From contig OZ244650.1 in NCBI GenBank assembly GCA_965218785.1, positions 896,001-960,000 of the forward strand: a stretch of 64,000 nucleotides of DNA, in the 5' to 3' direction. Below the pieces are notes generated by a model. It was given only the letters and a program-made list of their open reading frames with translations, was not told where the DNA came from and ran no database searches. The position numbers and the translations under genes were made by a program. This DNA is from Nitrosopumilus sp. (GTDB lineage Archaea; Thermoproteota; Nitrososphaeria; Nitrososphaerales; Nitrosopumilaceae). Shown piece after piece: positions 148 through 39,700 of the stretch. The number at the start of each line of letters is the position of its first letter. Positions within the stretch are counted from its first letter, which is position 1.

Positions 148-1785
148 TTACTTTTCTGATGCTGCCCTGATAAATTCCACAAATGACTCTTCTGGAAATC
201 CGGGCCTGCTGTTAAATTCCGGATGAAATTGAACCCCGAGATAGAATTTATGTGATGGAATCTCAAGCATCTCCATTCTTTTCCCCCCGTCACTCTCGGC
301 TGAAAATATCATCCCTTTTTTTTCAAATTCTGAAATGTACTCTTTGTTAACTTCGTATCTGTGTCTGTGACGTTTGCTGATACTCGACGAGTTGTATATT
401 TTTTGTGCAACTGTTCCCTTCTTGATTGAAATTTCATTTGCACCCAATCTAAGGGATCCACCCATGCCTGAAACCTCCTTTTGTTCTGGAAGCAGGTCTA
501 TTATGGGATTTTTGGCATCCCTCTTAATTTCAGTCGAATTTGCATCCTCGAGATTCAGCACGTTTCTTCCAAATGCGATTGCAGCTAGCTGAAATCCAAA
601 GCATATTCCAAGGTATGGTATATTTTTTTCACGTGCAAAGTCGGCAGTTTGAATGATTCCCTCAGAGCCCCTGGTTCCAAATCCTCCGGGAACCAGAATC
701 CCATCATAGTTTGACAAGACACCCCAGTCTGTGACTGTTTCTGAATCTATCCAGTCAATCTCTACTGCCTTTCTTATTTGGGCGCCTGCATGTTTTAGTG
801 CGTGATTTACACTCACATAACTGTCTGCAAGTGTGACATATTTTCCCACCATTGCAATTTTTATCTTCTGTCCTTCGTAATTGATCATGTTCTGTACTAC
901 CGTGTTCCACCTGTCCCAATTGGCAGAGGCGTTGACCATTCCTACCTTGCCAAACTTTGTAAACATTGAATCCATGATTCCCTGATCATAAAGCATTTGT
1001 GGCACCTCAAAGATTGATTTTGCATCATGACATGATAACACATTTCCCGTCGGTACGTTTGTAAACATTCCAATCTTCTTTTTTGTCTTTTCCTCCAGCT
1101 GTGTCGTACATCTGACTGCCAAAAAGTCCGGCTGAATGCCTATCCTTCGCAGTTCTTGAACGCTGTGCTGGGTCGGCTTTGTCTTTTGCTCCCCTACCAC
1201 GTCTAGTGACGGTGCTAGTGTCACGTGAATAAATATTATCCTTTGCTGCTCCTCCTCGACTTTCATCTGCCTGAGTGCCTCCAAAAACGGCAGTGACTCG
1301 ATGTCTCCCACTGTTCCACCGCACTCTACGATCAAAAAATCCAGTTTTTCATCGTCTGCGATTTTCTTGATTCTGTTTTTGATTTCATCAGTTACATGGG
1401 GAATAATCTGAACGCATACCCCCAGATACTCCCCCCTTCTTTCTGCTTCAATTACTGAAGAGTAAACCTGCGCCGTTGTAATGTTGTGGCTTTTTGGAAT
1501 ATTCTGATTGAGGAATCTTTCATAATTGCCAATATCCATGTCGCACTCCCCGCCGTCTTCTGTTACAAATACCTCGCCGTGTGCCACCGGATTCATCGTT
1601 CCGGCATCATAGTTCAGATATGGATCTATCTTGACACAGGAGACTTTTTGATCTGCCAGCTGGAGTAGTTTTGCAATCGAGGAAGTCGTTACGCCCTTTC
1701 CAAGGCCGGACATTACGCCGCCTGTGACAAAAATAAATTTCGTCTGACTTTGATTGTCCATCTTGCTATCTTTTGTCTGGGACAT
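148..1785 (-). CDS. pyrG: CTP synthase
   Basis: Motifs KFIFVTGGVMSGLGKG, DPYLNYDAGTMNP, GGTVGDIES, GICFG and QFHPEF are present. The true start may be the second Met at 1761. Confidence 0.98.
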   Translation of the reverse strand: MSQTKDSKMDNQSQTKFIFVTGGVMSGLGKGVTTSSIAKLLQLADQKVSCVKIDPYLNYDAGTMNPVAHGEVFVTEDGGECDMDIGNYERFLNQNIPKSHNITTAQVYSSVIEAERRGEYLGVCVQIIPHVTDEIKNRIKKIADDEKLDFLIVECGGTVGDIESLPFLEALRQMKVEEEQQRIIFIHVTLAPSLDVVGEQKTKPTQHSVQELRRIGIQPDFLAVRCTTQLEEKTKKKIGMFTNVPTGNVLSCHDAKSIFEVPQMLYDQGIMDSMFTKFGKVGMVNASANWDRWNTVVQNMINYEGQKIKIAMVGKYVTLADSYVSVNHALKHAGAQIRKAVEIDWIDSETVTDWGVLSNYDGILVPGGFGTRGSEGIIQTADFAREKNIPYLGICFGFQLAAIAFGRNVLNLEDANSTEIKRDAKNPIIDLLPEQKEVSGMGGSLRLGANEISIKKGTVAQKIYNSSSISKRHRHRYEVNKEYISEFEKKGMIFSAESDGGKRMEMLEIPSHKFYLGVQFHPEFNSRPGFPEESFVEFIRAASEK

Positions 1786-1975
1786 ATCAACTGTATTTTA
1801 AAGGACTTTTTAACATTTTTTGATGTGGGATCTGTCTGATGGATATGAAATACCATCTTCGGGATTGAAGTTTTGTGTCTGTTTGGCGCCTTTTTATTGA
1901 GGCGTTTTAAATGGGGTTTCCCATGGTTAACATCCTTGGGTGCTCAAATACAGGTCTTCTTGGAATTGATAGAGA

Positions 1976-2020
1976 GGTTCTGGTGTAAAATGGTGATTTA
2001 TATCACAAATATTGGATTTT
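1976..2020. repeat. Degenerate copy of the ~47-bp palindromic repeat
   Basis: GGTTCTGGTGTAAAATGGTGATTTATATCACAAA aligns with the left part of the copies at 3365, 4942 (rc) and 5107 (rc). Confidence 0.5.
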
Positions 2021-2324
2021 ATGTTATTTTGTCGATTTAAAATGAACTCTATTGTTTTTAGTACATCCCTTTACAAGGAAAATTAGGAACAAGATCCATC
2101 ACGATAACCCGACAGAACCATGAATGTAAATTAATAAATCATAGTATTTCTATATAAAAACACGGAATCTGGGGTTCTGTCAGGTTATAGACACCTGAAA
2201 AGATGTCCAAGGCTCCAAGTGCATTCATAACCAGCAAAATATGGAAACGATTGATTTAGAGTTTGTAAATTTACAGAATTTCCACAGGTGATGATTTATT
2301 AAGTTGGATTTTTGATATTCGTAA

Positions 2325-2768
2325 ATGGAACAATGGAATCTGGGAATTTTTACAATTATGTCTGCAATGGTTACGGTAATAGGAATTATTCTAGCTTCTC
2401 GTTTTGTATATGTAGATAATAGATACAGTAACATAATTAAAAACAAAGAAGTGGAGGTGCAAAAATTAAATGAAGTCAGAGATAAATCAGAATCTGATAG
2501 TCAGGAGATTATTACGAAACAATTGATGATTAACTTGATAATAGGAGAATACAAATCTAAACGTAAAGATAATAGAAGAATTGGAATAATATTGGATCTG
2601 ATTTCTTTATTTGCCATCATAATATTGGGAACAGTGACTACTTTGGGTTATTTTGGAAATTTTTATAATTTTATATTACTTATCATCTTATTGATATTCT
2701 TGTTTTCCCTACCAACACTGAATTTTTTGTTCTATGTAAAACATGTAAACAAATATTCGTCAATCTAG
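2325..2768 (+). CDS. Hypothetical membrane protein (~3 TM), passenger of the TIR element
   Basis: 147-aa ORF with one N-terminal and two C-terminal hydrophobic stretches; AT-rich. Confidence 0.6.
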   Translation: MEQWNLGIFTIMSAMVTVIGIILASRFVYVDNRYSNIIKNKEVEVQKLNEVRDKSESDSQEIITKQLMINLIIGEYKSKRKDNRRIGIILDLISLFAIIILGTVTTLGYFGNFYNFILLIILLIFLFSLPTLNFLFYVKHVNKYSSI

Positions 2769-3242
2769 TGAATTTTTTATTGTACTATTGACGGTGTATT
2801 TTGGATATGCCTCATAAATCTGTTTTAACATTTCAATGAAATTCATGGTTTGTAATTGTCTAATCTTGTCATTAATTTTCATCATTTCGTCTGTGGTGTT
2901 GTAGAATAATTTGCGCCATTTAGTACGTCCTTTAAGTGTAAGCGTATACTGGTTGTAGTTTCTTTCTTTATCAATTATCTTTTTAGCTAATATCTCATCT
3001 GTAATACATTCATCAATATCTTGGTTTAACTGTTTACTGTATGGTCCAAAATGATGAGGTATCCAATCATCATAAAAATTAAAAGTAGGATAGGTTTTTT
3101 TTAATTTTGTTAATTCCTTTTGATATTGTTTGAATAATAAAAAACCATATTTTTGAAATCTTGTAGAACCTCGTATGATATTGTCATTGATTATGAATAA
3201 TACTCGCTCTTCTGATTTTAATACAATTGTATTTGTTTCCAT
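2760..3242 (-). CDS. SocA/Panacea (DUF4065)/YwgA-like winged-helix protein, putative antitoxin
   Basis: Pattern G.TRFQK..FLL ... W.P..FGPYS..L ... Y.LT.KG ... L...Y..YP.Y. Confidence 0.55.
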   Translation of the reverse strand: METNTIVLKSEERVLFIINDNIIRGSTRFQKYGFLLFKQYQKELTKLKKTYPTFNFYDDWIPHHFGPYSKQLNQDIDECITDEILAKKIIDKERNYNQYTLTLKGRTKWRKLFYNTTDEMMKINDKIRQLQTMNFIEMLKQIYEAYPKYTVNSTIKNSLD

Positions 3243-3364
3243 TATTTATTCGTCCACACCAGTAATTGCCTTTTATCTTTGATTTTTTGCATGTCTAGAA
3301 TATGTATTATTATGCTTATGTGCTTTGTGCATTAATACACATATTCCGATGAATGCGGCGAGGA

Positions 3365-3411
3365 GATTCTGGTGCAAAACAATGATTAGATTACCAAAAT
3401 GCATCAGAATC
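3365..3411. repeat. 47-bp imperfect palindromic repeat
   Basis: GATTCTGGTGCA...TGATTAGATTACCAAAATGCATCAGAATC; same length and ends as the copy at 4942-4988. Confidence 0.75.
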
Positions 3412-3550
3412 GATCATTAGATAGAATCACAAGCAGGAATTCTTTTAAAATGTCTAATTTACTGAAATTCATTAAATAAGATGGTTTTACCCATTTTAGC
3501 ATTAATTTGTCCTTACAATAGCCCAAGGTCTAATAGCATTAAGTAGCGAC

Positions 3551-3595
3551 TCCAATACAGTAGAATCCAACACAGTGGAATTCAATACGGTAGAA
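3551..3595. repeat. Degenerate 15-bp tandem repeat, 3 copies
   Basis: TCCAATACAGTAGAA / TCCAACACAGTGGAA / TTCAATACGGTAGAA. Confidence 0.7.
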
Positions 3596-3781
3596 CCCAT
3601 TAGATCATATTATGAAAATGGAAAATTAACAACTGAATTTCATATTGGAAAAAAATATCAGGGTAGTAAATACATAAAAAAATAATCAAGTCAAAATATT
3701 ATTAATAATCTAGTCTATTTTTTAATAATCTTTATTGTGCATAAAAATCATCTTTTCAGGTGTCTATAACCCGACAAAATC

Positions 3782-3997
3782 GAATCTGGCAATACTAGTA
3801 AATTTACTATTCATATTCAAAGAGAGGATGATGGCGGATATAGCGGTCGGTGCCTAGAAATTCCGGCGGCTATAAGTCAGGGCAATTCATTAGATGAATT
3901 AAAAAAGAATGTGCAAGAAGCCATACAACTATCTTTAGAATATTTAAAAGATAAAGCCAAAAAAGAAAACAAGGAATTAATCGAGATTTATACATAA
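3782..3997 (+). pseudogene. hicB: HicB-family antitoxin, separated from its start by the TIR element
   Basis: Reads ESGNTSKFTIHIQREDDGGYSGRCLEIPAAISQGNSLDELKKNVQEAIQLSLEYL...*. There is no standard start codon, and an in-frame TAA lies at 3767. Confidence 0.85.
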
Positions 3998-4000
3998 TAA

Positions 4001-4216
4001 TTGACTCTTAGAAATCACAAATAGCGTGATGTTTATCGGGTTTTAGTTGATCATGGATTTTATGTTGATAGACAACGAGGGGATCACATGCACATGATCA
4101 ACTCTGCTGGTAGACATGTTGTTCTTGTAAAAACTAGTCCGATTAAAATCGGCACTTTGAAAAATATCTTAATTCAGGCTGACATAACACAAGAAGATTT
4201 TATTAAAGAAGTTTAG
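4001..4216 (+). pseudogene. hicA: HicA-family toxin with premature amber stop
   Basis: Reads LTLRNHK*RDVYRVLVDHGFYVDRQRGDHMHM...IKIGTLKNILIQA, with the HicA GF...RQ.G.H and GTL..IL motifs. TAG is at 4022-4024. Confidence 0.85.
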
Positions 4217-4287
4217 AAAAATTCAAATTCATTTAATCCAATATTGATAATTTTTATAATAATACTGGTAGAATGAATAGTAAACTG

Positions 4288-4705
4288 TCAATTCATCCTG
4301 TATCTAAAATATTTTCTGCCGTATTTAACATCAGGCTGTGCCGCCACATTTGATATTTTCCGGTCTGCGTAGTGTAGACAGTTTGGTCTTTTCTTTGACT
4401 TCCATTTCACTGCTAAATGACTAATTAACAAAGATGGAACAGTTGTACAGATTTCTTTTGCTTCAATTGGAGGAGTTGCATCATTTCTAATGTGAGATGC
4501 TGCAACTGTAACATATCCCATTGCCTCACCTTTAATTTTTAGCTGATACATTCGAATTATATTCTCTAACATCACCTAAAGAAATGTTTTGATAGTAATC
4601 TGTAAATTCTGGTACATCGGATTCAAAATCATCCTCTAACAAATCTGATTCTTGAACTTGCAGTATTCATATTCTATTGAATTGAAATCTATCTTTGGTA
4701 AAGAT
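4288..4705 (-). pseudogene. Frameshifted GNAT acetyltransferase (TacT/AtaT-like toxin)
   Basis: Pieces in different frames: ...DDFESDVPEFTDYYQ.., then IRMYQL..GYVTV...VPSLLISHLAV. The C-terminal acetyl-CoA motif is lost. Confidence 0.55.
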
Positions 4706-4717
4706 AATTTTTAAAAA

Positions 4718-4867
4718 TTAGAAATTTGATTTAGGATTGGCTTTTTCTACGTGTTCTTGAGCTCTTTTCAAATTTGCCATCTGTTCGGGGGTTGCTCCTG
4801 TTTTCAAGTTTTCTTGTAATTTTCTAGTTTGCATTTTATCAAATGGTTTAACGTCTCGCAATGCCAT
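4718..4867 (-). CDS. 49-aa protein directly upstream of the GNAT gene, putative antitoxin
   Basis: MALRDVKPFDKMQTRKLQENLKTGATPEQMANLKRAQEHVEKANPKSNF*; TA-like position, with an AT-rich TATA-like stretch upstream. Confidence 0.5.
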   Translation of the reverse strand: MALRDVKPFDKMQTRKLQENLKTGATPEQMANLKRAQEHVEKANPKSNF

Positions 4868-4941
4868 AGTAATATGAATATAAGAAATGTTATAAAAAAA
4901 TACTATGAGATTATCGGGATCTGATTATATAGGTTAGACTT

Positions 4942-4988
4942 GATTCTGGTGCATTTTGGTGATCAGATCACTAGAATCCACCAGAACC
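4942..4988. repeat. 47-bp imperfect palindromic repeat
   Basis: GATTCTGGTG-CATTTTGG-TGATCAGATCA-CTAGAATC-CACCAGAACC; near-identical to the reverse complement of 27852-27897. Confidence 0.9.
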
Positions 4989-4990
4989 AT

Positions 4991-5082
4991 GCAGAGGCTG
5001 TCTAGTCTGGTATGTCGTTTGCCTTAAGAGTGGATGACTGTCATGAGTTTCGGGGGGTTCAAATCCCCCCTTCCTCTCTGCG
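4991..5082 (+). tRNA. Degenerate tRNA-Leu(TAA)-like gene, probable pseudo-tRNA
   Basis: Acceptor GCAGAGG/TCTCTGC, D-loop TAGTCTGGTA, anticodon loop CTTAAGA, long variable arm, T-arm GGGGG-TTCAAAT-CCCCC. The D and anticodon stems are weak, and extra bases precede the 3' acceptor strand. Confidence 0.65.
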
Positions 5083-5106
5083 TCAGCTCCCGCTAACTTA
5101 CCGGAG

Positions 5107-5152
5107 CATCCTAGGATGTTTTGGTGATCAGATTATCATTTGTATCAGAACC
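5107..5152. repeat. Degenerate copy of the ~47-bp repeat, same orientation as 4942-4988
   Basis: TTTTGGTGATCAGATTATCATTTGTATCAGAACC. Confidence 0.7.
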
Positions 5153-5211
5153 ACATAAAATTTCAATCTGGAGAAGATCATATTTTGTGCCATATCTGCA
5201 TACTTGGTACC

Positions 5212-5401
5212 TATATCGCTATTAGAAATAGTATTTAAAACAAAACGATATATCGCTATCCAAAATAGTATTTAAAACAAAACGATATATCGCTATCCAA
5301 AATAGTATTTAAAACAAAACGATATATCGCTATCCAAAATAGTATTTAAAACAAAACGATATATCGCTATCCAAAATAGTATTTAAAACAAAACGATATA
5401 T
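5212..5401. repeat. 37-bp tandem repeat, 5 copies, no spacers
   Basis: Unit ATATCGCTATCCAAAATAGTATTTAAAACAAAACGAT; period 37 (e.g. 5251, 5288, 5325, 5362). Confidence 0.95.
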
Positions 5402-5434
5402 TTTTATTAAAAATGGTGTCTAACAAACCACATA

Positions 5435-6058
5435 ATGAAAAAGGAGATCCGTACTAATATCAAAGATAGGGTGGCAAGAATACTGTTTAATGAACCGGGC
5501 GGAACACTGACAAAATATCAAATAGCAAAATTAGCAGGTAGTGGGTATCCGTGGATTCATAGTCTTTTGAAAAAATTAGAACAGCAGGGAATCATTCAGA
5601 AAACCAAAGTAAAGAATTTTGAATCATTGATGGAATGGTGGAAACAATGTCAACCCATTCCAAAAAATAGAGAATATATGATTCAAAGACCGTTAGAATT
5701 ATTAAAACAGACCAATCTGGAATACGCCCTTACAACATACCAGGCAGAAAATATGGTACAAAATTACCTATTTCCAACACGAACCGATATCTATATCCGT
5801 CAATCAGACAAACTAAAGTGGCACAAACTGCTAGTTCAAAACGGACTGGTCGGTAGGGGAAACATGAGGATTTTCATTGGAGATGATCATGTATTTTACA
5901 AATCGTTCAAAGTAGACGGCTTTTCACTGGTGTCAGTACCTCAAATAATGTCTGATTTGTATCGGGAGGGCAATGTTGGTATCGAGGCAGCAGATATGCT
6001 GTTAAAAAAGGTGGAGAAAGGCGCTCTGCAAAATCAAGTCAGACATATCAAAATATAA
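5435..6058 (+). CDS. AbiEi-like type IV TA antitoxin / HTH regulator (orphan)
   Basis: N-terminal HTH, then YALT...A......P...DIYI, GN.RI and VS.PQI..DL...G..G.EAA..L. Confidence 0.6.
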   Translation: MKKEIRTNIKDRVARILFNEPGGTLTKYQIAKLAGSGYPWIHSLLKKLEQQGIIQKTKVKNFESLMEWWKQCQPIPKNREYMIQRPLELLKQTNLEYALTTYQAENMVQNYLFPTRTDIYIRQSDKLKWHKLLVQNGLVGRGNMRIFIGDDHVFYKSFKVDGFSLVSVPQIMSDLYREGNVGIEAADMLLKKVEKGALQNQVRHIKI

Positions 6059-6219
6059 TTTAATCAGTGCTTTCAATACTTTTTTTCTAAACATTTTAAA
6101 CAAATTATCGGATGTAATTAACCCGAAAAGATTCCCGTCCGGTACTGCTTAAATTGAAATATCCGTTACCCGTCTGCTATTTCCGTATGTCTGCTTTTAG
6201 GATTTTGATGAATATGTAG

Positions 6220-6759
6220 TTATACCATGCCGGCTTCTGCATTTGAATCTACAGAAACCGAAATAGACGTATTGTGGATGGCGTGAATTATGGGATCTCC
6301 CAAATCATTACTATACTCCGGATACAGATAAGCCGTATTAAGCGTAGTTTTAGTTCTTAACATGACGGGTGTCTCCCCCTGTAATACATATTCATTCCAG
6401 GGTTCATCTGTTTGTTCTTTTATTATATATGAAAACAGATCTTGTTTTTTACTGGAATTGATAAACTGAGGCTGCCAACGTTTTGCGGATTTTATTTTTT
6501 CACCCTGATTGACATATCCCACCATTGGATGATAGGATATAAAATATCTCATATGATCAGGAATGTTTACCATGTTGGGAACATTTGCAAATTTTTCATC
6601 ACGAACTTTTAAAATATTGATAGGTATGTTTGCAACACGCAAAAACCCCTTTACTGATGGATGTTCAATTTTGTACATATTGTATTCGAATTTTTTAACC
6701 TTAAACAGAATTGAATCTGCATCCTTTTTGGGATTGATGGAAATAGAGCGGTCTGACAT
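6220..6759 (-). CDS. Hypothetical protein
   Basis: 179-aa ORF, 3 bp downstream of the Zn-ribbon gene. Confidence 0.65.
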   Translation of the reverse strand: MSDRSISINPKKDADSILFKVKKFEYNMYKIEHPSVKGFLRVANIPINILKVRDEKFANVPNMVNIPDHMRYFISYHPMVGYVNQGEKIKSAKRWQPQFINSSKKQDLFSYIIKEQTDEPWNEYVLQGETPVMLRTKTTLNTAYLYPEYSNDLGDPIIHAIHNTSISVSVDSNAEAGMV

Positions 6760-6762
6760 TTC

Positions 6763-7152
6763 TCATTGACCTGGTTTTATCATGGGTTTCTGCAGATGTT
6801 TTAGATCCGTTGTGGATTCTCCGGTGAATTCTTTATCATTATACTTTGAGATATTTTCAGAAATATTGGATGTAATCTCTGCATCAAAGGAATCAAGAAA
6901 AACAGTTTCCCCATCCACGCTGACCTGAGCCGTTCTCTGTATTGTACCTGCCTGATATGCTGATCTTTGCAAATCCTCATATTTTTTCTCAGAGAACATG
7001 CTATAATGACACATTGGGCAGCGCAAACCATCAAAAGCACCCAGAAAACTACCATCCTCAAAATAGGGTACAAGACTTTTAGCAAGTGCGGTTTTACAAT
7101 CCGGACAACCAAATGCCCCTGATTTTAACTGAATTGGGTCTTTTTGTGTCAA
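6763..7152 (-). CDS. Zinc-ribbon protein (YgiT/MqsA-like CxxC...CxxC)
   Basis: CPDC and CPMC pairs; TTG start. Confidence 0.55.
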   Translation of the reverse strand: MTQKDPIQLKSGAFGCPDCKTALAKSLVPYFEDGSFLGAFDGLRCPMCHYSMFSEKKYEDLQRSAYQAGTIQRTAQVSVDGETVFLDSFDAEITSNISENISKYNDKEFTGESTTDLKHLQKPMIKPGQ

Positions 7153-7632
7153 GTTGCTAGTCCTACTATCTCAGGTAATTATTTAATATAAATGGTTTTT
7201 AAAAATAATTTACAGGTGTATTGAGAAGCATTACAATCAAGCCTGATTTTATCCGATAAGCACATTTTTTATTTTTGTCGCCTTGAAGTACATCCTACTT
7301 TTGTTTTGGGATGCCGTGTTTGATTCTGACAGGATTTTATTTAACGCGTCTGGCAGCATGTCATAAACAACATGCAGATCGTATTTGGCTACCTGGATCC
7401 CAAGCATGATTGTCAAACCCGCCTCAATAGATTGCGATCATAGAATCTGCCAAAATGATCTTATCATTTCAAGATCTTTACAACTGTAAAAAAATCCCTT
7501 GTTTTTTTAACGACTATACAGGATTTCAGAGGATCTTTTTTATTTTTCCAATGCGTATCATACATGAAGACCTCGAGTTCGGTGGCCATATCTGGGGTGA
7601 CCTCCATCATATCAGATAATTTGGCCGCCACT

Positions 7633-8448
7633 CTATGACGATTCAAGCATTGTCTGTCTCTTGAGACTTTTTGTAAATGATGCAATTTTTGCCTCCAGTT
7701 TATTTTGGGGTGTTTTTTCAATCAGTTTCAAGTATGCACTTCCGACGATTACCGCATCTGCACCGGCACTGATGTATCTTTTTACATCCTCCGGAGTTGA
7801 GACGCCAAAACCCACCCCCACCGGGAGTCCTCCTCCTTTCCTGGTGTATCTTTTGACATCCCTGATTGCCTTTAGCGTGTAATCTTTAATCCCCGTCTTG
7901 ACACCTGTCGTTCCGTAAACTGCTACAAGGTATAGAAATCCAGTCGATGCCTTGGCAATCTCCCGTATTCTTGTCTTTGTGGTATTGGGCGATATCAAAA
8001 ATATCGTGTCTGCCTTGTTCTTTGCCGCGTGCAGGTACTCTTTTGACTCCTCTACTGACATGTCTGGGAGAATAAACCCGTCAATTCCCGCCCCTGTCGC
8101 TTTTGAAATAAATTCCTGATATCCCATGTGATACAGTATGTTGGTGTACGTCATTAGTACCAGTGGGATATCAGTCTCCTTTCTGATCTTTTTTACAAGA
8201 TTCAGAAACTTGTCCACAGTAGTGCCTTTTTCAAGTGATACGGTACCTGCATTCTGAATTACCGGTCCGTCTGCCAGGGGATCTGAAAATGGAAAGCCCA
8301 GTTCTATGATGTCTGCCCCGCCCTTTACCAGCCCCCTTACTGCCGTAATTGTCGCCCTCTCATTTGGGAATCCGGCCATGATATATGAAATCAGCGCCTT
8401 TTGATTTCCTGCCTCCATCTCTGCAAACTTTTCCTTAATCTTTGACAT
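7633..8448 (-). CDS. trpA: Tryptophan synthase alpha chain
   Basis: [33 protein letters not shown]. Confidence 0.97.
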
Positions 8449-24434: not shown

Positions 24435-25307
24435 TCATAGATATTTTTTATTTTCCCTCAAGTATTTTGTCACAAACCATTTTACAAATATAAAATCGTT
24501 ATTTTTTAGGCAGGACGACTCTAGTTTTTTGATGTATGTTTGTTTTTCTTTTGGCAGAATATTCATCATGGGATATCTGTTCCTGTGCAATACCCGCAGC
24601 ATCAACATCCTTCCGATCCTCCCATTTCCATCAATAAACGGATGTATCAACTCGAATCTTTTGTGAAATATTGCAGATAACTGTACTGGATTAACATCCG
24701 TCTTGACTTTGTCGTACCATTTTAGCAATTCCCCCACGTCTGAAATGACATCTGCCCATGGAGCATACTCTGTCTTCCCCGGATAGGGTGCCACATCTTC
24801 TCTTCTAAAACTTCCTGCGTTGTTGGTGTCTGTCCTTTCAAATAATTTTCCGTGCCAGTCAAGAATCAATTTTTTAGAAATATCCTTGCTGGGATTTAGC
24901 ATGTCATCGAAAATTACTGCCATTTGTTCTGCCTCTATAATATCCTCGGTGGATGTATCTTTGGGTGACAGATGATCCTCCAATAACTTTTTTGTCTGCC
25001 CTAACGTCATGGTACTTCCCTCAATTCTTTGCGTGCTGTAGATGTGGATAACTTTGAATCCATGATGTTCTGATTTGAGGATTTTCGGATCAGTTTTTTT
25101 AGAAAATCCAGAATATTTTTTTTTAATTTTTTCTAACAGTGGGTTTTTTTCATCTTGAAAAATCCCCCCTTCAAATTCTTTTTCCAGTCGTTCTAGATTG
25201 TCAGGTATTTTTCTGCCCAGATATCTTTCATATTGTTTTATGCCTGTCTTGTGAATTAGATAATAATATTTACCATTACCTTTAGTTCGTTTAATTGTTG
25301 ATACCAT
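24435..25307 (-). CDS. Fic-domain protein
   Basis: Canonical HPFIDGNGRIGR motif plus the inhibitory-helix motif STQRIEG. Confidence 0.93.
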   Translation of the reverse strand: MVSTIKRTKGNGKYYYLIHKTGIKQYERYLGRKIPDNLERLEKEFEGGIFQDEKNPLLEKIKKKYSGFSKKTDPKILKSEHHGFKVIHIYSTQRIEGSTMTLGQTKKLLEDHLSPKDTSTEDIIEAEQMAVIFDDMLNPSKDISKKLILDWHGKLFERTDTNNAGSFRREDVAPYPGKTEYAPWADVISDVGELLKWYDKVKTDVNPVQLSAIFHKRFELIHPFIDGNGRIGRMLMLRVLHRNRYPMMNILPKEKQTYIKKLESSCLKNNDFIFVKWFVTKYLRENKKYL

Positions 25308-27262: not shown

Positions 27263-27580
27263 CTAGGGGGCTTTCAGCTCTATTTCAGAATTACATGTGG
27301 GCAGATTGCCTGACTCGTCCCTGAATTGCTGGATTAACCGAATCTGGCGTTCTTTTGGATTGTCTGTAAACTCCCTTTGATATGACTGGGTTTTTTGCAT
27401 GCATTCGTTTCCCTCAAAATCCGTATCCACGTATTTTGTGAATCTCTCTTGCAGGTTTTCTGACTGGCCAATGTATATCACCTCTTTTTTCCTGTCATAC
27501 AATACGTATACGCCGGGAATTGATTTTACAAATTTGGCACTCTCCAGCCAAATCCTCATTTTATCCTCAAGTAACTGCAT
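27263..27580 (-). CDS. GIY-YIG nuclease-family protein
   Basis: PGVY.L.......IYIG.S.NL..R...Y, ending P.CN. Confidence 0.85.
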   Translation of the reverse strand: MQLLEDKMRIWLESAKFVKSIPGVYVLYDRKKEVIYIGQSENLQERFTKYVDTDFEGNECMQKTQSYQREFTDNPKERQIRLIQQFRDESGNLPTCNSEIELKAP

Positions 27581-27851
27581 ACTATGCGATACTTCTACTA
27601 GATATTAAACTAAGGTACAATATACCTGATATCTGACTTTTTTAGCACCGAAGATCTGTATCTTTTGCTTTTTTGATTTTGTAATGTCAAATAATGATTG
27701 GTAATCTTGATCTAAAACAAACCTTGCAACAAAACATGCCTGATCTGAAATAACGTTTTGGAGCACCTGCGACGTAGTTTTGCCCCGTCGATCCCTTGAC
27801 CATCAGAACCGATTTGTACCATTCAACCATTCTGATCTTTGGGCTGCCACA

Positions 27852-27897
27852 GGTTCTGTGGATTCTAGTGATCTGATCCCCAAAATGCACCAGAACT
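27852..27897. repeat. ~46-bp palindromic repeat, left copy
   Basis: 27850-27894 is identical to 28255-28299 (45 bp). Confidence 0.95.
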
Positions 27898-27960
27898 CTC
27901 CATTACGACAAATACAGGTTTTAGAGGCGTAATAGAGAGAGAAAGTCAGTTGGAAATAGT

Positions 27961-28030
27961 GTGGACTGGGAATCGAACCCACGCCTAAGAGGTTTTAACT
28001 CATGATGCTACCATTACACCAAGAGCCCAC
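27961..28030 (-). tRNA. tRNA-like gene (pseudo/atypical; anticodon loop TTAAAAC)
   Basis: Reverse complement: GTGGGCTCTT GGTGTAATGGTAGCATC ATGAG-TTAAAAC-CTCTT AGGC GTGGG-TTCGATT-CCCAG TCCAC. D- and T-loops are clear; the acceptor/T-stem junction is aberrant. Confidence 0.6.
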
Positions 28031-28256
28031 CAGGTTTATTAAAAAATACAAAGTAATAATGTTGAGGTTTCAACTCTAAAACGCGCTAATTACATTGGCC
28101 TGGTTTTCCTTTCTGCCATCAGCCCACAGCTTTTGAAGAGAAAGGAAAACAAATTTTTGTTATATCTGAGGATTTGATGCAGGGTAGGTTGTTTCAACTA
28201 GTAAAAGATTGTCACAAACCGGCCCTGCAATTTTTCTCTATCTGGTTTTATTCCCA

Positions 28257-28302
28257 GGTTCTGTGGATTCTAGTGATCTGATCCCCAAAATGCACCAGAT
28301 CC
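28257..28302. repeat. ~46-bp palindromic repeat, right copy
   Basis: Direct repeat of 27852-27897, 405 bp downstream. Confidence 0.95.
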
Positions 28303-28444
28303 TGTCACATTCTTTTCTAAAGAAGATCGGCCATGTTTTAAATCCTGCCGCATATGCTGATCCGGATTGAAGCCAAACCCTGCAAAATCCCTGATATCAC
28401 AAGAACCTTCATACTTTTAATATTGTGAAAAAACATGATTAATA

Positions 28445-30714: not shown

Positions 30715-33700
30715 TTGAGTCCTGCATCTGCTGCAGTCATTTGCGTGCTAGCCCTCTCCCTCTCTGCCGGACTGGTATTAGATGCACATGCCCAAGCAAT
30801 TCATCAAATATACAATATAGACTCCCTTGACCTCCCAGACAACGGATACCGGCACAATCTGACACATCTGACTGGTAATTATTACGTCTCCTCACACACT
30901 GTAATCACTCCTGACACCACCCCCACACAACTGGATTCGGCAGTCACCCTCAGATTATACAGCATCATTAATGAGCACATCACGCTGATTGGCAGCCAGG
31001 TAATACAAAACAACGCCCAAGACAAAACCCTGTCACTACACGAACTTTCAACAGAACCCAAATCAACTGCCCTCACCCGCGTGGATGATGATACAATCGC
31101 AGTCTCATATGTAGTTGGCAGTACGTCCAGTACCGTTACCACATATGATGTTGATACCGGTTCTACCACACCGTTTGGTAATCCTAAAAGTGCGGACTTT
31201 AGAGATGGTACCAACGGCGAACAGACGCAGAACCATTCTCTAGTAACACTTGATGCAAACAGGCTGCTAGTTGCATATTCGTATCCGAACAGTTCTCCCA
31301 CCGGCTTTATGCATGTCATCACCATTGATCCCAACACCGGTGCCCTGAGTGCCGGTACCCCCGCACCAATCACTGCCAACCAAGGGCTGTACCCGTCCAT
31401 GGTAAAGCTCGATGATGACACGGTGGTACTTGCATACAGGGGCAACTCTGCACATCCATTCATACAGACATTTGATGTTTCAGCTGATAACACCATTACT
31501 GCCGGAACCGCATATGATATCGAGGATAGAATAACGGCATACAACTCTCTTATCCGGGTCGATGATGACACGGTGGCACTCGCATACTCTGCGATTGGTG
31601 CCAGCACATCCGCATCTGTCGGGCACGGCACCATCAAGGTATTTGATGTCACCTCAGCCGGCGTCATTACTGAAACGGACAGCCAAACGTATTACGGTGC
31701 TGCCGCAGACGCAACATTTGAAGAACAGGTACACCTCAACTCGCTGGCACTGCTGGATTCTGACACTATTGCCCTCGCATACAGGGGAGATGCTGCAGAC
31801 GGCTTTATCCGATTATATGACATTGATCACACCACGGGCACCCTGACGGCAGCAGGCATACCATTTGAGCATGACCAGGCAGACGGTTCATTCAACTCGC
31901 TTGTACGAGTCGATGATATCACACTGGCACTCGTGTACGGAGGGGATCTTTTGGCTGCCATGCCGGATTCCACTGCAACCCCCAACAGAATCAAGACACT
32001 TACTGCTGTAGACCCCGGCACATCCCCGCCAGTCATCGTGTCTGCCGTGGCCAATGATGCGACCATGATCGTACTTGCCGCATCCGAACCCCCTGAAGGA
32101 ACCGCATCTGTTCAATACGCCGTTACGGCGGATACACCGCCCACTGTTGTCATATCCTCAACTACTGCCTTTGATGAGACCGCCACAAACACCGGCACCC
32201 TATCCTACACTGCTGAATTTACAGAGCCCGTGACAGGCTTTGATGTGTCAGACATCCGCGTAACTGGAACGGCATCAGGCGGCTCTCCTATGGCATCAAA
32301 CTTTGATGGGACCAGTGATAGATACACCTTTGAGGTGAAAACCACTTCTGATGGAACAGTCCTGCTATCAATTCCCGCAGGTGCGGCAGCAGATGCGGCA
32401 AACAACGGCAACAGGGCATCCGGCATATACGTCATTACAGTCGATACTGCCATTCCCGAAATTAACTCAATAGTTCTCACCGATTCTAGTACGGTCGTAC
32501 TTGTCGCATCAGAACCCCTCGTAGATGTTCCTGATACCGGCACCTTCCAAGTCTCCGACAACACAGTATTTGGCACCTCACTCTCTGATAGAATCATAAC
32601 ACTCACAGTCAATATGCCCATCAAAGCAACCGGGGTCATTAAAGTCACCTACACCGGCTCGAATTTTGCCGATTCTGCGGGAAACCCGCTTGCCGACTTT
32701 ACTGACATGTCCGTGATAAACAGCATATCTCAAGTACGGATTGTCCATGCCGCCCTGGATGAAAACAGCGGAATACTTGAGATACGGTTTAGCGGCACCA
32801 TCCAGTCTGATGAAGTATCCCCTGAAAAAATCCACATCATAGATTCTGATTCTGCTGCAAACAGCGTAACGCTCTCTGATGGCGAACTTGTCGGAGTGGA
32901 TGGGACCGTGGTAACATTCAGACTTGATGAACAGAACAGACAAAACGTAATTCTGTTTGATGTGCCGACCCTTAGTTTTGACTCTGTCGCAATGTCCTTT
33001 ACAGACGGAAAAGAATTCCCCCAGTCCACAGACACATTCAGGGCGGTTCCAGTCACGAGTCTTCCGCTTGAACCATTCCAGTCAGCAGATGACACCATAT
33101 ACAGCATTCCCGGAGTGGAGATAGGCAATAACGGCACAAAAATGTTTATTCTGGAATTAATAGGTTCCGTCTACTTTGTGGAATACGATCTTGCCACTCC
33201 GTTTGATATTTCAACTGCCAGCCGCGTACAATCCGTGTACCTGGGATCCGGTACGGATCTTCATATTTCTCCGAATGGTACAAAATTATTTTTCGCAAAG
33301 GCTACTGACCCAATAACGACATATACGCTTTCCACGCCCTTTAATATTTCCACTGCGACACTATCTGATTCCGCCCAATTTCTATCAGACAATAAATATG
33401 TGAGTGGAATTGACATGACACCAGACGGCACAATGTTGTTCATATATGACGATTTTGCTGATTTAGTATACCAGTACGATCTTGTCACCCCCTTTGATGT
33501 CAGCACGGCCGAAAGTAATGGCACGTTTCTGGTACCTGGAGATTTTACTACACCCATCACTGCCCTGTCAGTATCTGATGACGGCGGACACCTGTTCTTA
33601 CTAGATGTTACACAGGGCATGACCCGATATGCCCTTGCCACGCCATTTGATGTCACTACCGCCCACAGTCCTGAAACAATACTGCCCCCCGTCCGTTTCA

Positions 33701-36700
33701 ACTATGGAATTGCGTTATACGATGATGACACAAAGATGATCCTCACATCAGATACGGATCGCAGCATACACCAGTTTGCGCTGTCAGTATACGACCTTGA
33801 GACAACACATGCCGTCATGGACATACCTGTTATCACATCTGTCTTTGCAGCCCCCGGCATCTACGGCATTGGGGATACTGTTGATATTACGGTGCGATAC
33901 TCTGAGGATGTACGTGTAACTGGAATACCCAAGATGGGAATCAGCATCGGGGATCAAATCATACAGCTTGATTACAGCCCCGCCCCGCCCTCCTCTGATC
34001 TTCTCTTTCAGTATGTTGTACGGGAGGGAGATAATGTCAATCCGCTGGACCATGCCGGAACAGAGTTGATACTCCCGGATGATGGCGCATTCCTCGTCTC
34101 CTTTGAGCATGGCGTGGAAACCTTCAACGCGCTTCCAGAGCCCGGCTCTGCCGCATCCCTTGCAACCTCTAACGTGGTACTTGACGGCGTGAGACCCACA
34201 CCCCACCAGTATCCGGAGATATCAGTTGATACCATAACAGTACAACTGACTGAGCAGATCAGCCTCGCCGGTTCTCCTGCCTTTAACTTTGCCATACGCG
34301 GTCTTGAATCCAATCCAACTGTCAGATCAGTTAGCATGTCTGGTACGAATGCCACGCTGACCCTCTCCGGACCTATCATGTTACACCAGGCCCCTACCCT
34401 CTCATACGTGCCATCAAACGTGGGCTCCATATCTGACCCTGCCGGAAACACCTTACTTGGCTTTACCATGCCGTTGTCGCATCAAGGCTCAGTTGATCTT
34501 GTCTCGTTATTCATGGATGAGGATAACAAATGGATAGAGGCAAAATTTGACAGCATTATAGACGTATCCACCATAGCACCTGCAAACATGCGGATTATTC
34601 CATCAGGCTCGGCGGACATACTGCTTGCTGATGACGCTCTTTTAACCGTGTCTGATTCAGATACGATACGACTACAACTGACAGACGCGCAGATAAACAC
34701 GATAAGACTTGCAACGCGCACCACCCTCCATTTTGACTCTGTTGCGATGCATGATGTGGCAGGCGATCCCTTCCCCACGCCGTTCCACGTGGTATCGCCT
34801 GTGAATGCCGGCTCTGTCGAATTTCCAGCAGTTGGAAACCCGACCGGACTGGCATTCTCCAATGACGGGCGCAAGATATTCCTATCTGATGGCGGCTCAC
34901 ACATCATATCAGAGTATTCGCTGCCCGTCCCCTTTGTCCTGACACAGGCGACGTTTGTGAGCTCACTTGATGTGGACTCTTATGCCGGCGATAACTACCA
35001 GGTCGTCTTTTCTGATGACGGGCTCAAGATGTTTGTTTCAGCACGCTTTGGCGGCATTGTCGAGCATTCGCTATCCGCACCGTTTACACTATCAACTGCC
35101 ACGTTTGTACGCGAGTCTGCTGGAATCATATCTGATACCACTACGGCCTCTGAAGGACTGACATTCTCCGGTGACGGCAGCAGCATGCTTGTAACAACTG
35201 ACCGTGACGGTATTGTTATGGGCCAGTTTGACCTTCCAGTACAGTTTGATCTGGCCGCATTTAATCGCGGCTTCCTCCTGGATCTGAGTGAGGATATCAC
35301 AAGCCCGGTACAGGTGATAATATCCGATGATGAAAACAGGGTGCTCATTTTGGACTCTAGTAATGACACAGTTCACACATACAACAACCAGAGGCCCGAC
35401 ATACCATTTGATATACAGAATCTGATTCATGCCGGAACTGCCACGCTGGAGGGGACGGATATAGATCCCAGGACAATGACGTTCTCCGGTGACGGTCTTG
35501 ATCTGTTTGTAGGGGATGTCTTCGGCGATGGGAAGGTAAGGCAGTACTCCCTTGCCACATTCGAATTATACGTGGATCCCGTGTGTGCAGGAGACCAGAC
35601 AGTCGTTGGCGGTGTATGTGTAGACCCCGTATGCGTCGGTGACCAGGTCCTGACCGGCGGTGTATGTGTAGAGCCCACATGCATCGGTGACCAGGTCTTG
35701 ACTGGCGGCATGTGCGTGGAACCAACATGTATCGGTAATCAAGTTTTAACTGGCGGCATGTGCGTGGACCCGACATGTTCTGCATCATCCATCCTGGCTG
35801 CCGGCATCTGCCGGGATGAAGTCGATGACTATCTGCGTCTGGCATCATTTGATCCGAATTCGGGAACATTCTCCCTCACCTTTGAAATTGTCATCGATAA
35901 TGACACCATTGATCCTGCAAAATTCCAGATCCGAGAATATGATACTGTCTCGGGGGTGACCCTCTCCGCTGCCGAGCTTGTCACATCTGTTGATTCCAGA
36001 GAGCTGATCTTTACGCTGACTGATACAAACAGGCAGACCGTATCGGGGTATCTCAGACCGACTGTATTCCTTGAAACATCTGCAGTAACTGATGCCAATG
36101 GAAATACATTTCCGACATCCAGTGACATTAGCAACGCGGTGGAGCTAAAGATACTCTCACTTGATACCATACTTGGCGAACTGCCGGTGTTTGGGGACAT
36201 TGAGTTCTCCTTTGATGGAAATACTTTGTACATCGTTGAGAGATACAACACGATAGAGACGAGAGAGATGAGAGACCAGCTGTCCCAGTTCTCGCTGGAC
36301 GCACCGTTTGATGTTGAAGATCCGACTGAGATGGGAACCACCTCGCTTGAGGCCCAGAACAGATTTCTGCGCGATATAGAGCTATCCAATGACGGAACAA
36401 GCATGTTCATACTAGATGATGAGAACGGCATATACGAGTATTCACTGTCTACACCCTTTGACACGTCCTCGCCGACCCATGTGAGGACGTTTGCAGCAGG
36501 TGCCAGTTTACAGACTCCGCGCGGAATGGATTTTTCTGCTGACGGCATGGATTTGTTTGTAATTGAGGCCAGATCAGACATTGTAACGCATTACTCGTTG
36601 ACTGCCCCCTTTGACATACGGTCACCAACCGAGGTCAGCAATTACTCCATAGCAGACAGGGAGAGTAAACCGCTAGATGTAGAGATCTCCGAGGATGGAC

Positions 36701-39700
36701 GAGAGATGTTTGTGCTGGGATCACAGGCCAACAGCGTAATCCAGTATGGCATGTCCGCCCCCCTTGATCTTAGCACTGTCACATATAGGCATTCTTTAAC
36801 TCCACACCCCTTTGACGTACTGTCCCGCGGAATAGAGTTCTCCCCTTCCGGTGACAGAATGTACTATCTGGGAGACGCACTTAACAATCTGCACCAGTAC
36901 TCCCTCAACACGTTTGATATTGGAGTTTGCGAGGGATCCCAGACAATCGTTGACGGGATATGCATGGATCCCACGTGTACCGGAGACCAGACCATTGCAG
37001 GCGGCATGTGCGTGGACCCCGTGTGTGCCGGAAACCAGATGGTCCTTGACGGGGTATGCATGGATCCGACATGTATCGGGGATCAGATGACCATCGGCGG
37101 CATGTGCGTGGACCCCGTGTGCATCGGGGATCAGAGCGTCGTTGAAGGGATGTGCATGGATCCCGTGTGCCCTGCAAACGAACACGGGATTGGAGGAGTA
37201 TGTATCAGCATTGAGATCGTTTTGGATTCTGTGACCCTGAACTATTCCACGGGGAGGATGTTTATGATATTTAGCGATATAATCGATCATGCCAGCATCA
37301 CCCCTGCAAAAATCCACATTATGGGTACGGGCGGCGATTCTGAGGATATCGCACTCTCTGCAGCAGAGCTAGTCGTCTCCTCTGACTCGTCCGTGGTAAT
37401 ATTTGATCTCTCGGATCAAAACCGGCAAAAGGTCGCGTCATTTGTGAATCCCGCCGTCCACTTTGATATACACTCGCTCTCGAGTCTGGACCGTAAAATG
37501 TTCCCCGTCGCATTTGAGCTGTCTGAGCTGTCCCTTGCAGACTCTGTTGATATTGATGATCCTGACGATCCTGACCGGTCTGCGTTAACTCTGGGGGATG
37601 CGACATTCTCTAATGACGGCAGTACCATGTTTGTAACGCAGACAGATGATTACAAGATATACCAGTATGCGCTCTCCGTACCATTTGATGTTGGCACCTC
37701 CATGCTTGTATCATCCTTTGTATTTTCAAACAGTTTGACACCAGAAGCAGTGGACTTTGATGATGACGGTACAACGATGTTTGTGCTGCAGACAGATTCT
37801 GGCACGGCGACTGCAGGCGTATACCCGTACACCCTGTCTACCCCGTTTGACATATCTACAATAGAATCCCCCCTCGTAAACCCGAGCGGATTCTCAGTAT
37901 CTGACCAAAGCAGCTCTGCCACGGGCCTGGCGTTTTCAGGTAACGGAACTGGCATGTTTGTAGTGGGGACCGGTGATGGAAAAATATACTGGTACTCGTT
38001 GACTGCACCCTTTGACATATCCACACCGATGTTTGCAGGCAGTTCCGCTGCACCCTTTGATGGCGGTGTCGATATCACGGGCCTGGAATTCTCTGATGAT
38101 GGAAATACAGTGTTTGTAGCAGACTCTGATAATGACGAGATAGACCTGTATGCCCTGACTGCACCCTTTGACATATCCGCACCGGTGTACCTGCGTTCCC
38201 TGGGCATCTCAGAGGATGACACCCCGGCAGACGTTTATTTTTCCACGGATGCCAGCGCCCTGTTTGTAACAGGCTCCCAAACTGACAGGGTATACCGGTA
38301 TGATCTGAGTGTTTCATATGACGTGCCTGGCTGCGGAGAGGATAGTTCATGTACTGGTTCATCCCTTGATATCCTCTCTGCAGTATGGCGGGATCCCGAC
38401 GAGTCTGATACTGTCTTATCAGACGGCGATGAGCTGAGCATCACGTTTAACCAGGTTACTGACATGGCGGGATCTCAGGTGCTCTCAAAGTCAGTCCTTG
38501 ATGCAATCTTTGAGTTTGGGGGGACGCTTGGGGCAGATTACACCGGCGTGTGGTCTGATGCCAGAACGCTTGTAATTACCGTAATTGACTCGACTGGCGG
38601 TGATGCGGCGGTGGGTGATACCATCTCGCCGTTTAGGGGGACGGCATTCATATACAGCCTTGATACTGCGGGCGGAACCGCATTTTTCCGTCCTGCCGAA
38701 GTTGCAACAAACTCCACGGGGCACATCTTTGTTGCAGACTTGAACAACGTCCAGATATTTGATCCGGATGGAACGTATGCCGGAGCACTTGACACCGCGG
38801 GCGGAACCGCATTTTCACGTCTTGCCGGCATTGCAACAAACTCCACGGGGCACATCTTTGTAGCTGATGACGGACTCAACCTGGTCCGGATATTTGATCC
38901 CGATGGAACGTATGCGGGAGCCCTTGACACCGCGGGCGGTCAGACGTTCAGGGTGCCTGCAGCCGTTGCAGTGGGACCCGATGACAGGATCTACGTCAGC
39001 GATACTGACGCTAGCAACGTAGACAAGCGAGACCGGCGCAACGTCCAGATATTTGATCCGGACGGAACGTATGCCGGAAGACTTGCCACCACTGTCAGCA
39101 CAGAATTTGACACACCCCTGTCTGTTGCAACAAACTCCACGGGGTACGTCTTTGTGGCAGACAGTGGCAATGATGATATCCGCATATTCCATCCGGACGG
39201 GAGAAACATTGCCAATATAGACGCAACCGGCCAGAGCGGCTCCTCAAGTCCTATTGCAGTCGCCACAAACTCCACGGGGCACATCTTTGTATCATTTGCA
39301 AACGTTGGTGCTGCTGCTGACAGCATCGAGATATACACGGGCTCTGGCGTGTACATCGAGGATCTGCCCCTGAGAAACGTGGATTTTGGACGGGCGTCGG
39401 GGATTGCAGTGAACCCCGATGATCGGCTGATCATCGTTGATTCCCAAAACAACGAGGTGTATGTCTTTGGCCATCAGATAATATACTCTGATACGGGACT
39501 GCAGCAGTTCGCCTCTGACGCAGATACCTCCGGCAACTTTGGAATACTTCGCCCGACTGTATCTGTAACATCCGATGTACTCCCGGGTGCTACTACCGCA
39601 CTTGACACGGTAGGATTCACCGTGGTATTCAGCGAGGAGGTTACCGGATTTGATGCGTTAGATATAGCAGTAACTGGTATGGCGCAGGCCGCAGTCGTTC

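Follow-up and report, generated by a model that had tools for sequence, protein, structure and literature searches.

In bacteria, the MITE-flanked integrons or 'integron mobilisation units' are composite transposons of two miniature inverted-repeat transposable elements (MITE), and repetitive extragenic palindromes (REP) and bacterial interspersed mosaic elements (BIME) are mobilised by REP-associated tyrosine transposases (RAYT) of the Y1 type. The Pack-MULEs of plants are cargo-capturing non-autonomous transposons with long structured ends and have the IS256 elements as prokaryotic relatives. Archaeal integrons with attC-bounded gene cassettes were reportedly described in 2022. The locus analysed here lies in a stretch of 64,000 nucleotides (nt) of Nitrosopumilus sp. 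(G000:C1:896001-960000, hereafter the window, to which positions refer unless marked as genome positions) of a 1.99-Mb genome with 40.6% G+C. At 4942-5152 the window contains a 47-nt palindrome, a tRNA-Leu(UAA)-like sequence (4991-5082) and a second copy of the palindrome (Table 1). Pairs of this palindrome probably behave as the ends of non-autonomous transposable cassettes, with 4991-5082 as decayed accessory-tRNA cargo in an old cassette.

A profile search with nhmmer located 42 palindrome loci in the genome (at least 11.5 bits), 16 of them at 48 bits or more, and the flanks of the loci were unrelated to one another. Neighbouring loci were separated by gaps of 3 kb or less in 19 cases, whereas 10,000 random placements gave 2.5 such gaps on average and never more than 10. 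Bracketing by palindromes is thus not chance, and the reservation of a preliminary description of the locus, that an abundant repeat might bracket sequences by chance, falls away. The segments between paired palindromes had nothing in common with each other. They carried single genes or small gene sets, among them AbiJ, IetA (E 7.7e-89) and ShosA (E 2.5e-72), an SDH-type protease, a GNAT acetyltransferase and several proteins of unknown function; one palindrome pair was inserted inside the urease cluster, and small cassettes held tRNA remnants. The three proteins of a 2.3-kb unit matched no family significantly, and one of them had a HEPN-like R-x6-H motif by eye only.

Target-site duplications of 8 bp (at least 7/8 identical) flanked 6 of the 14 adjacent pairs versus 1 of 182 mismatched control pairings, and none of the 42 single palindromes. 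A sister cassette at 27.9 kb was among the six (CTGCCACA / CTGTCACA). Pair orientation was mixed (8 direct, 6 inverted), and because direct (4) and inverted (2) pairs alike carried duplications, the result fits ends that are functionally symmetric. A 334-bp unit between aminotransferase and biotin-synthase genes was missing at the orthologous site in three relatives, with gaps between the two genes of 68 (G158), 34 (G144) and 75 nt (G151) versus 394 nt here. The 2.3-kb three-gene unit was 92.98% identical over 2294 nt to a unit of G151, exactly from outer palindrome edge to outer edge, and its flanks were unrelated between the two genomes; the pyrG and trp genes of the two were 75-77% identical. 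The duplications, the pairing, the empty site and the inter-species copy therefore make it probable that the pairs act as cassette ends. Among the earlier suggestions, that of a system which captures or mobilises tRNA-like RNAs came nearest in its mobility (6/14 pairs with duplications, 5/6 accessory tRNA copies at palindromes), but not in a specificity for tRNA, given cargo such as AbiJ, IetA and ShosA.

The cassettes resemble the MITE composites of bacteria in having two short non-coding repeats around unrelated cargo, a target-site duplication round the whole unit and no transposase inside, mobilisation necessarily being in trans. They differ in that each end is a complete 47-nt palindrome that works in either orientation, in their thaumarchaeal host, in cargo that includes accessory tRNA and defence genes, and in that no autonomous partner is known. 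The 47-nt palindrome would be the terminal sequence of a small non-autonomous cassette family found in a subset of genus genomes, and the mobile unit would consist of palindrome, cargo and palindrome and would duplicate 8 bp of target site on insertion. A transposase acting in trans would presumably recognise the symmetric ends GGTTCTGGTG...GGTGATC, and the length of the duplication would imply staggered cuts; both the transposase and the cutting mechanism are what we infer. Cargo would be whatever sits between two ends, be it genes for defence, genes of unknown function or accessory tRNAs. The accessory tRNA-Leu(UAA) at 4991-5082 would have lost its function through nucleotides inserted where the T stem meets the acceptor stem and through stem mismatches, and 4942-5152 would be an old cassette, its right end decayed too, in a variable island that separates pyrG from the trp operon.

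No transposase domain was found in the cargo of pairs in 6 genomes, and comparing the genome with itself revealed no classical insertion sequence in multiple copies. In the genome, Y1_Tnp (PF01797) had 0 matches (5 candidates scored), with the control positive in 6 of 14 reference genomes, and the TnpB zinc-ribbon had 0 matches. Transposase_mut had no match in 4 of 5 genomes and weak matches in G152. IS1595 transposases had 35 matches in G144, 21 in G158 and none in G000 (the present genome), G151 and G152; the best candidate inverted repeats at two IS1595 copies (27 nt with 74% and 23 nt with 78% complementarity) were unlike the palindrome. Three origins were rejected: IS200/IS605, with 0 matches of the TnpA/TnpB families and 8-bp duplications present; an IS256 type, with the Transposase_mut gene absent or weak; and an IS1595 type, absent from G000, G151 and G152 and without palindrome-like inverted repeats.

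The copy at 4942-4988 was the genome's best palindrome copy (62.5 bits), and as single-stranded DNA it formed a hairpin of -11.1 kcal/mol (z -3.9). As first described from reading the sequence, it ended 2 nt ('AT') before the tRNA-like sequence, which starts GCAGAGG. The second same-orientation copy of that description, 5107-5152, was present on the same strand, but as a decayed copy of variant B that had no fold (DNA minimum free energy -1.4 kcal/mol, z +0.81); it grouped with variant-B copies having a common downstream flank. Three palindrome variants differed solely in the 3' inner half (CTAGAATCC, CTRTTTTGC and CCAAAATSC); the outer arms were GGTTCTGGTG / CACCAGAACC, each end forming a 47-nt dyad. 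When up to 2 mismatches were allowed, the 15-nt core TTTTGGTGATCAGAT matched the window at four places, 4954 and 5119 (+) and 27871 and 28276 (-), versus an expectation of 0.38, and four matches were reached in 0 of 100 shuffles.

Nineteen of the 151 genomes of the genus had palindrome matches, at most 37 per genome, and a reversed control pattern had 0 matches everywhere. Exact-core matches in the species collection came from four records, all titled 'Nitrosopumilus sp.', and the palindrome pattern had 0 matches in viral contigs. Metagenome contigs diverged at 4944 and 4988/4989, as expected of a multi-copy repeat. In 32 copies from several genomes, covariation of the palindrome pairing was 0.105 versus 0.098 in shuffles (65 of 500 shuffles equal or higher). 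With pairing no better kept than in shuffles, the dyad therefore looks like conserved DNA and not like a selected RNA or single-strand fold. The proposal that the palindrome is an operator or processing signal for the RNAs found no support, given this lack of covariation and the mixed orientation of the pairs.

Directly downstream of the right palindrome lies a partial copy (5155-5192) of a second repeat, fam2, and the order palindrome then fam2 recurred at genome 55.3, 56.2, 740.7, 821.2 and 1278.6 kb. The fam2 family is about 110 nt long, occupies about 35 places in the genome and has the end ...GATAACTTTACAGAACC; it often begins directly after a stop codon (e.g. of hsdS genes) and sometimes after a variant-B palindrome. 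A likeness of the fam2 core to the 5' half of this tRNA-like sequence was unsupported, the last 20-25 nt alone being in common. A 10.9-kb inverted-repeat structure with fam2 copies (genome 69-80 kb) was rejected as a transposon and is a type I restriction-modification locus; at genome C1:69.4-80.3 kb (L036), inverted hsdS copies with a tyrosine recombinase look like an invertible specificity switch.

In the relative G152, a locus (L069, G152:C9:27500-30300) had inverted ends of about 240 nt (364-605 and 2179-2380 of the locus) that enclose a TPR protein gene. The ends of this G152 element combined half-palindromes, three TGTTCAAAAG motifs and a fam2-like core, which suggests that the palindrome and the adjoining fam2 may be pieces of a once longer terminal structure. 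Pack-MULEs and IS256 are alike in their 8-9-bp duplications, captured gene fragments and long structured termini (about 240 nt with three TGTTCAAAAG in the G152 relative). They are unlike in that the Transposase_mut gene was absent in 4/5 genomes and weak in G152, and kinship with them is a candidate only.

The palindromes might instead be REP-like or regulatory elements of intergenic DNA, with the bracketing reflecting shared gene-poor islands. They are, as REP/BIME are, short imperfect extragenic palindromes in tens of copies (about 40 per genome, intergenic only) that are often paired, and single copies had no target duplications. Nor were they enriched near real tRNA genes: of 42 such genes, 2 had a palindrome within about 300 nt versus a random mean of 0.63 (P = 0.14), a result that also gave no support to the proposal that the repeat targets tRNA loci; in other genomes, a tRNA lay within 600 nt of 2 of 13 palindrome loci. 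This explanation is nevertheless unlikely. Whole pairs, with cargo up to the kilobase range, were flanked by 8-bp duplications, inter-species homology ended exactly at the outer palindrome edges, empty sites were present, the distribution was patchy within the genus (19/151 genomes), no Y1 (RAYT-type) transposase was found in the genome and compensatory changes were not seen.

It is quite unlikely that the palindromes are attC-like sites of an integron-like or other site-specific recombinase system, with cassettes entering at an existing site. In favour of it, imperfect palindromes bound single-gene cassettes as in integrons, the cargo is promoter-poor and in many cases of defence type, arrays occur, such as that of six palindromes all pointing the same way at genome 816-821 kb, and single sites are without duplications. 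Site-specific recombination, however, yields no target-site duplications, and duplications of unrelated sequence flanked 6 pairs here. The orientation of the pairs was mixed, and the ends GGTTC...GAACC differ from the attC arrangement (...AAC...GTT...). No integrase was seen beside the arrays examined (open reading frames of the 816-821 kb array), with no dedicated genome-wide search aimed at an integron integrase.

In the 92-nt sequence 4991-5082, the anticodon loop reads CTTAAGA (5023-5029), the variable region is long and the T arm is GGGGGG-TTCAAAT-CCCCCC. ARAGORN found 0 tRNA genes in the window and none in the excised sequence either. Rfam found 0 families in the window at gathering score and, on 4800-5300 with E up to 10, 9 matches of which none was a tRNA; among them the T arm (5053-5069) matched positions 347-363 of the transfer-messenger RNA (tmRNA) model at 12.3 bits. 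The sequence was missing from the 45 genome matches of the tRNA model RF00005 (curated cut-off 29 bits) at E up to 1, and its fold as a whole was no better than shuffles (z -0.83). Against a profile of intact relatives it scored 64.6 bits.

Matches to the candidate with its trailer DNA were found in 6 of 151 genus genomes including its own; in a smaller draw of 41 genomes, there was just one short partial match to the candidate outside its own genome. ARAGORN called an intron-less tRNA-Leu(taa) at 4 of the 6 examined loci, with RF00005 scores of 49.3 (G145), 31.9 (G162), 47.7 (G140) and 39.2 bits (G164). The candidate was 79-85% identical to these four loci, aligning at 79% with the intact G145 gene. 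Compared with the latter, it had about 6 extra nt where the T stem meets the acceptor stem and a mismatched D stem (GTC/GTC here versus GCC/GGC in G145). A trailer of about 30 nt ending ...GATAACTT.ACAGAACC was common to all accessory-Leu members, and fam2 ends in the same motif. The copies of G151, of genome 885.5 kb and of the window were decayed. The sequence 4991-5082 is a pseudogene of an intron-less accessory tRNA-Leu(UAA) and not a working tRNA.

In the 885.5-kb copy, half a palindrome ran straight into the variable arm of this same tRNA-like sequence, and the trailer was the same too. The likeliest reading of this copy is an identical palindrome-tRNA unit that suffered an internal deletion, in which case the unit would have been duplicated whole at least once. 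Beside the intact accessory-Leu genes of the relatives lay transposases of the IS3 and IS110 types or the EF-2 gene with its 3' end, and EF-2 is a known integration target in this phylum according to a published survey (PMC6563490). Contigs assembled from three runs of two studies extended over the tRNA-like sequence and beyond with 0 differences (4961-5212 in X3, 5026-5212 in X1 and X2). Contig joints 4973->5164 and 4989->5161 were rejected as excision products, their extra letters fitting other palindrome-fam2 loci.

The genome's tRNA set was archaeal in type, with numerous intron-bearing genes. No tRNA-Leu(UAA) was found in it by ARAGORN, whether or not introns were allowed, or by an initial RF00005 pass. 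A profile built from three intron-less Leu tRNAs matched genome 322206-322318 at 35.1 bits (E 2.2e-8) and the candidate at 10.5 bits (E 1.1). At the 322-kb locus, the tmRNA model (24.5 bits) matched an acceptor stem and a T arm, both perfect, that enclose an insert of 85 nt. Excision of a 20-nt segment from the D arm and a 15-nt segment from the anticodon loop gave an 85-nt tRNA-Leu(taa) by ARAGORN in all five pre-specified variants; a brute-force splice scan discriminated too poorly, with some call for 1325 of its 5040 variants, and the five variants alone were used. The two-intron gene was present in 5/5 relatives searched, in four of them at 95.9-98.3% over 120 nt with introns included, and in the fifth (G164) as matches of its two outer parts and no more.

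The cell thus has a core tRNA-Leu(UAA), and the candidate at 4991-5082 is therefore not needed. The comparison with the genome's real tRNA set that had been proposed placed the real tRNA-Leu(UAA) elsewhere, with two introns, and left 4991-5082 as a pseudogene. In practice, the genuine two-intron tRNA-Leu(UAA) escapes standard tRNA finders, and decayed accessory copies mimic the missing gene. Trp, Glu-UUC and third CAU tRNAs were likewise not found in the genome and may be hidden in the same way. An odd tRNA-like sequence with anticodon GTC and a long extra arm (36.0 bits) was seen at genome C1:812935-813019 (L005), 3 kb from the six-palindrome array at 816-821 kb.

That the tRNA-like sequences are attachment-site leftovers of integrase-mediated integration of larger elements into tRNA genes is very doubtful. 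The cassette does lie in a variable island, the copy at 885.5 kb is a 3'-half fragment, and tRNA genes are a frequent target of integrated elements in Thaumarchaeota (39 of 68 elements in PMC6563490). The candidate, however, is full-length and belongs to a family other than the core tRNA-Leu(UAA), on which the accessory-family profile scored 20.5 bits with the 3' part alone; it has intact full-length homologues with their own trailer, and the 885.5-kb fragment, joined to its half palindrome, is better read as the internal deletion. A functional, unusual tRNA-Leu(UAA) at 4991-5082, with the palindromes as its promoter, terminator or processing signals, is highly improbable: its anticodon loop, T arm and 5' acceptor strand (GCAGAGG) are recognisable, ARAGORN and the first Rfam pass offered no other tRNA-Leu(UAA) and a palindrome ends just 2 nt from its 5' end, but the two-intron gene is conserved in 5/5 relatives, both tRNA finders reject the candidate, the extra nt and D-stem mismatch set it apart from intact homologues, the same palindrome flanks protein genes and the covariation of a folded signal was not seen.

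Both window cassettes had the same order and orientation of palindrome, tRNA-like sequence and palindrome, all three parts on the + strand here and all on the - strand at 27.9 kb, in agreement with the preliminary description. The tRNA-like sequence of the sister cassette (27962-28028) had lost 4 nt from the 3' acceptor strand and scored 68.5 bits against a profile of intact relatives; it aligned with intact genes of G154, G161 and G157 and with decayed copies in G151 and at genome 1344.5 kb. A TATA-like upstream region was conserved across members of this 72-nt family. Matches to the 27.9-kb cargo occurred in 12 of 151 genomes, and intact 72-nt tRNAs of relatives scored 46.8-60.3 bits on RF00005. 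The genome itself had four members, one intact (1290013-1290084) and three decayed (923.9, 1344.5 and 1073.6 kb). On the question whether the two sequences score as tRNAs, neither did so itself (4991-5082 without an RF00005 match, 27962-28028 below the cut-off) but homologues of both passed; the tRNA-like sequences are pseudogenes and no new RNA class.

The intron-less 72-nt family (G154, G161, G157, G144, G007, G158 and the intact copy of the present genome) had a conserved body GTGGGCT...AGTCCACA and varying anticodons (GAA, AAG, GTC), and G144 had two members in tandem. A Leu anticodon on a class I body is unusual.

An unbiased profile search placed 5 of the 6 accessory-tRNA copies of the genome (two families) inside or against palindromes. 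For the accessory-Leu family, both significant profile matches outside the core Ser/Leu tRNA genes were palindrome-associated, as were 3 of 4 members of the 72-nt family, and G151 and G154 repeated the association. Several observations weigh against reading the pairs as cassette ends and 4942-5152 as one such cassette. The association of 5/6 is no statistical law, because the copies are related by duplication and represent perhaps three independent events. Intact accessory tRNA-Leu genes elsewhere had no palindrome within 1.5 kb, the link in this family being confined to the genome's own two related copies. The 4942-5152 cassette had no recognisable target-site duplication (best 5/8, within the control range), and its right palindrome was about one third diverged. 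Eight of the 14 pairs were without duplication, and the G151 pair around the 2.3-kb unit had none by eye. No transposase with matching ends was found among Y1, TnpB, Transposase_mut and IS1595, other DDE families not having been searched. Since 4942-5152 has no target duplication and the intact relatives no nearby palindrome, its status as a former mobile unit would rest on the sister cassettes, from which we infer its mobility.

Cataloguing of mobile elements in ammonia-oxidising archaea has dealt chiefly with proviruses, casposons, integrative elements and classical insertion sequences, and a survey lists five classes of integrated elements and 244 insertion sequences (PMC6563490). The available text of that survey contains neither 'MITE' nor palindrome-bounded cassettes, the sole 'palindrom' standing in a reference title, and literature pairing Nitrosopumilus with MITE held nothing relevant in titles and the opening lines of abstracts. 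Rather unlikely as a whole, though compatible with the cassette reading, would be an undescribed cassette system in which an unknown transposase making 8-bp staggered cuts moves defence genes one at a time (AbiJ, IetA, ShosA, HEPN-like), along with intron-less accessory tRNAs, from locus to locus and from species to species. Its tRNA cargo would serve as a spare or decoy against anticodon-cleaving defence nucleases and would buffer the cell or the mobile element; the 72-nt family, in which one body is kept and the anticodon varied (GAA, AAG, GTC), may be cited beside this. If the main reading of the pairs as cassette ends holds, the catalogued elements would be joined by a layer of very small transposase-less cassettes that move defence and spare tRNA genes within and between species of the genus. 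The accessory tRNAs of phages and mobile elements are alike in being intron-less extra copies of host-encoded tRNAs, in their sporadic occurrence (6 and 12 of 151 genomes for the two families here) and in surroundings rich in mobile elements. They are unlike in that the units here are very small transposon-like cassettes with 0 viral-contig matches, and most copies in the present genome are decayed.

Table 1. Coordinates of the two cassettes, their surroundings and the core tRNA-Leu(UAA) (window positions unless marked).
Feature	Position	Strand	Evidence or remark
Palindrome, full copy (variant A), left cassette boundary	4942..4988	+	Sequence GATTCTGGTGCATTTTGGTGATCAGATCACTAGAATCCACCAGAACC; near-perfect dyad
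Intron-less accessory tRNA-Leu(UAA) pseudogene	4991..5082	+	Anticodon TAA 5025-5027
Conserved accessory-tRNA trailer, diverged end ...GATAACTT.ACAGAACC-type motif	5083..5111	+	Aligns with G145, G162, G151 and genome 885.5 kb
Palindrome, decayed copy of variant B (3' inner half ...ATCATTTGTATCAGAACC), right cassette boundary	5107..5152	+	nhmmer 12.0 bits, E 0.2, core only
fam2 repeat, partial copy (core TTTCAATCTGGAGAAGATC)	5155..5192	+	15-mer with 37 genome matches, overlapping 16-mer with 35, each with up to 2 mismatches; alignment
Variable island holding the cassette	1786..7632	.	Between pyrG and trpA; Pfam
pyrG	148-1785	-	Pfam
trpA	7633-8448	-	Pfam
Third palindrome copy in the island, decayed	3365..3410	-	nhmmer 18.0 bits; genome 899365-899410
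Sister cassette	27852..28301	-	Palindromes 27851-27897 and 28256-28302; tRNA with promoter region
Decayed 72-nt accessory tRNA (Phe-GAA type, now AAA)	27962-28028	-	RF00005 27.8 bits, below the cut-off of 29
Left target-site duplication of sister cassette (CTGCCACA)	27844..27851	.	7/8 identical to CTGTCACA
Right target-site duplication of sister cassette (CTGTCACA)	28302..28309	.	Flank comparison
Genuine two-intron tRNA-Leu(UAA), introns in D arm and anticodon loop	Genome C1:322202-322322 (locus L004)		Outside the window

The pyrG-trpA spacing was 5.8 kb here versus about 1.1 kb in G158, in which the island was absent and the gap was occupied by an IS1595 transposase copy. A small second contig of the assembly (3.7 kb) had no relation to the repeats. 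Downstream of the cassette, a 37-nt tandem repeat at 5212-5401 (5.1 copies, 98% matches) lay just upstream of an open reading frame with a Crp-like helix-turn-helix (5435-6058), and 5307-6076 was 89% identical to a different locus of G151. Adjoining the 27.9-kb cassette, a short open reading frame at 27263-27580 (-) matched the first half only of a GIY-YIG nuclease domain. Elsewhere in the window, a Fic-domain gene was seen at 24435-25307 (-), and an open reading frame at 50539-51285 (+) matched the serpin C-terminal quarter only. One open reading frame of 6490 aa occupied 30715-50187 (+), with about 50% G+C versus the genome mean of 40.6%.

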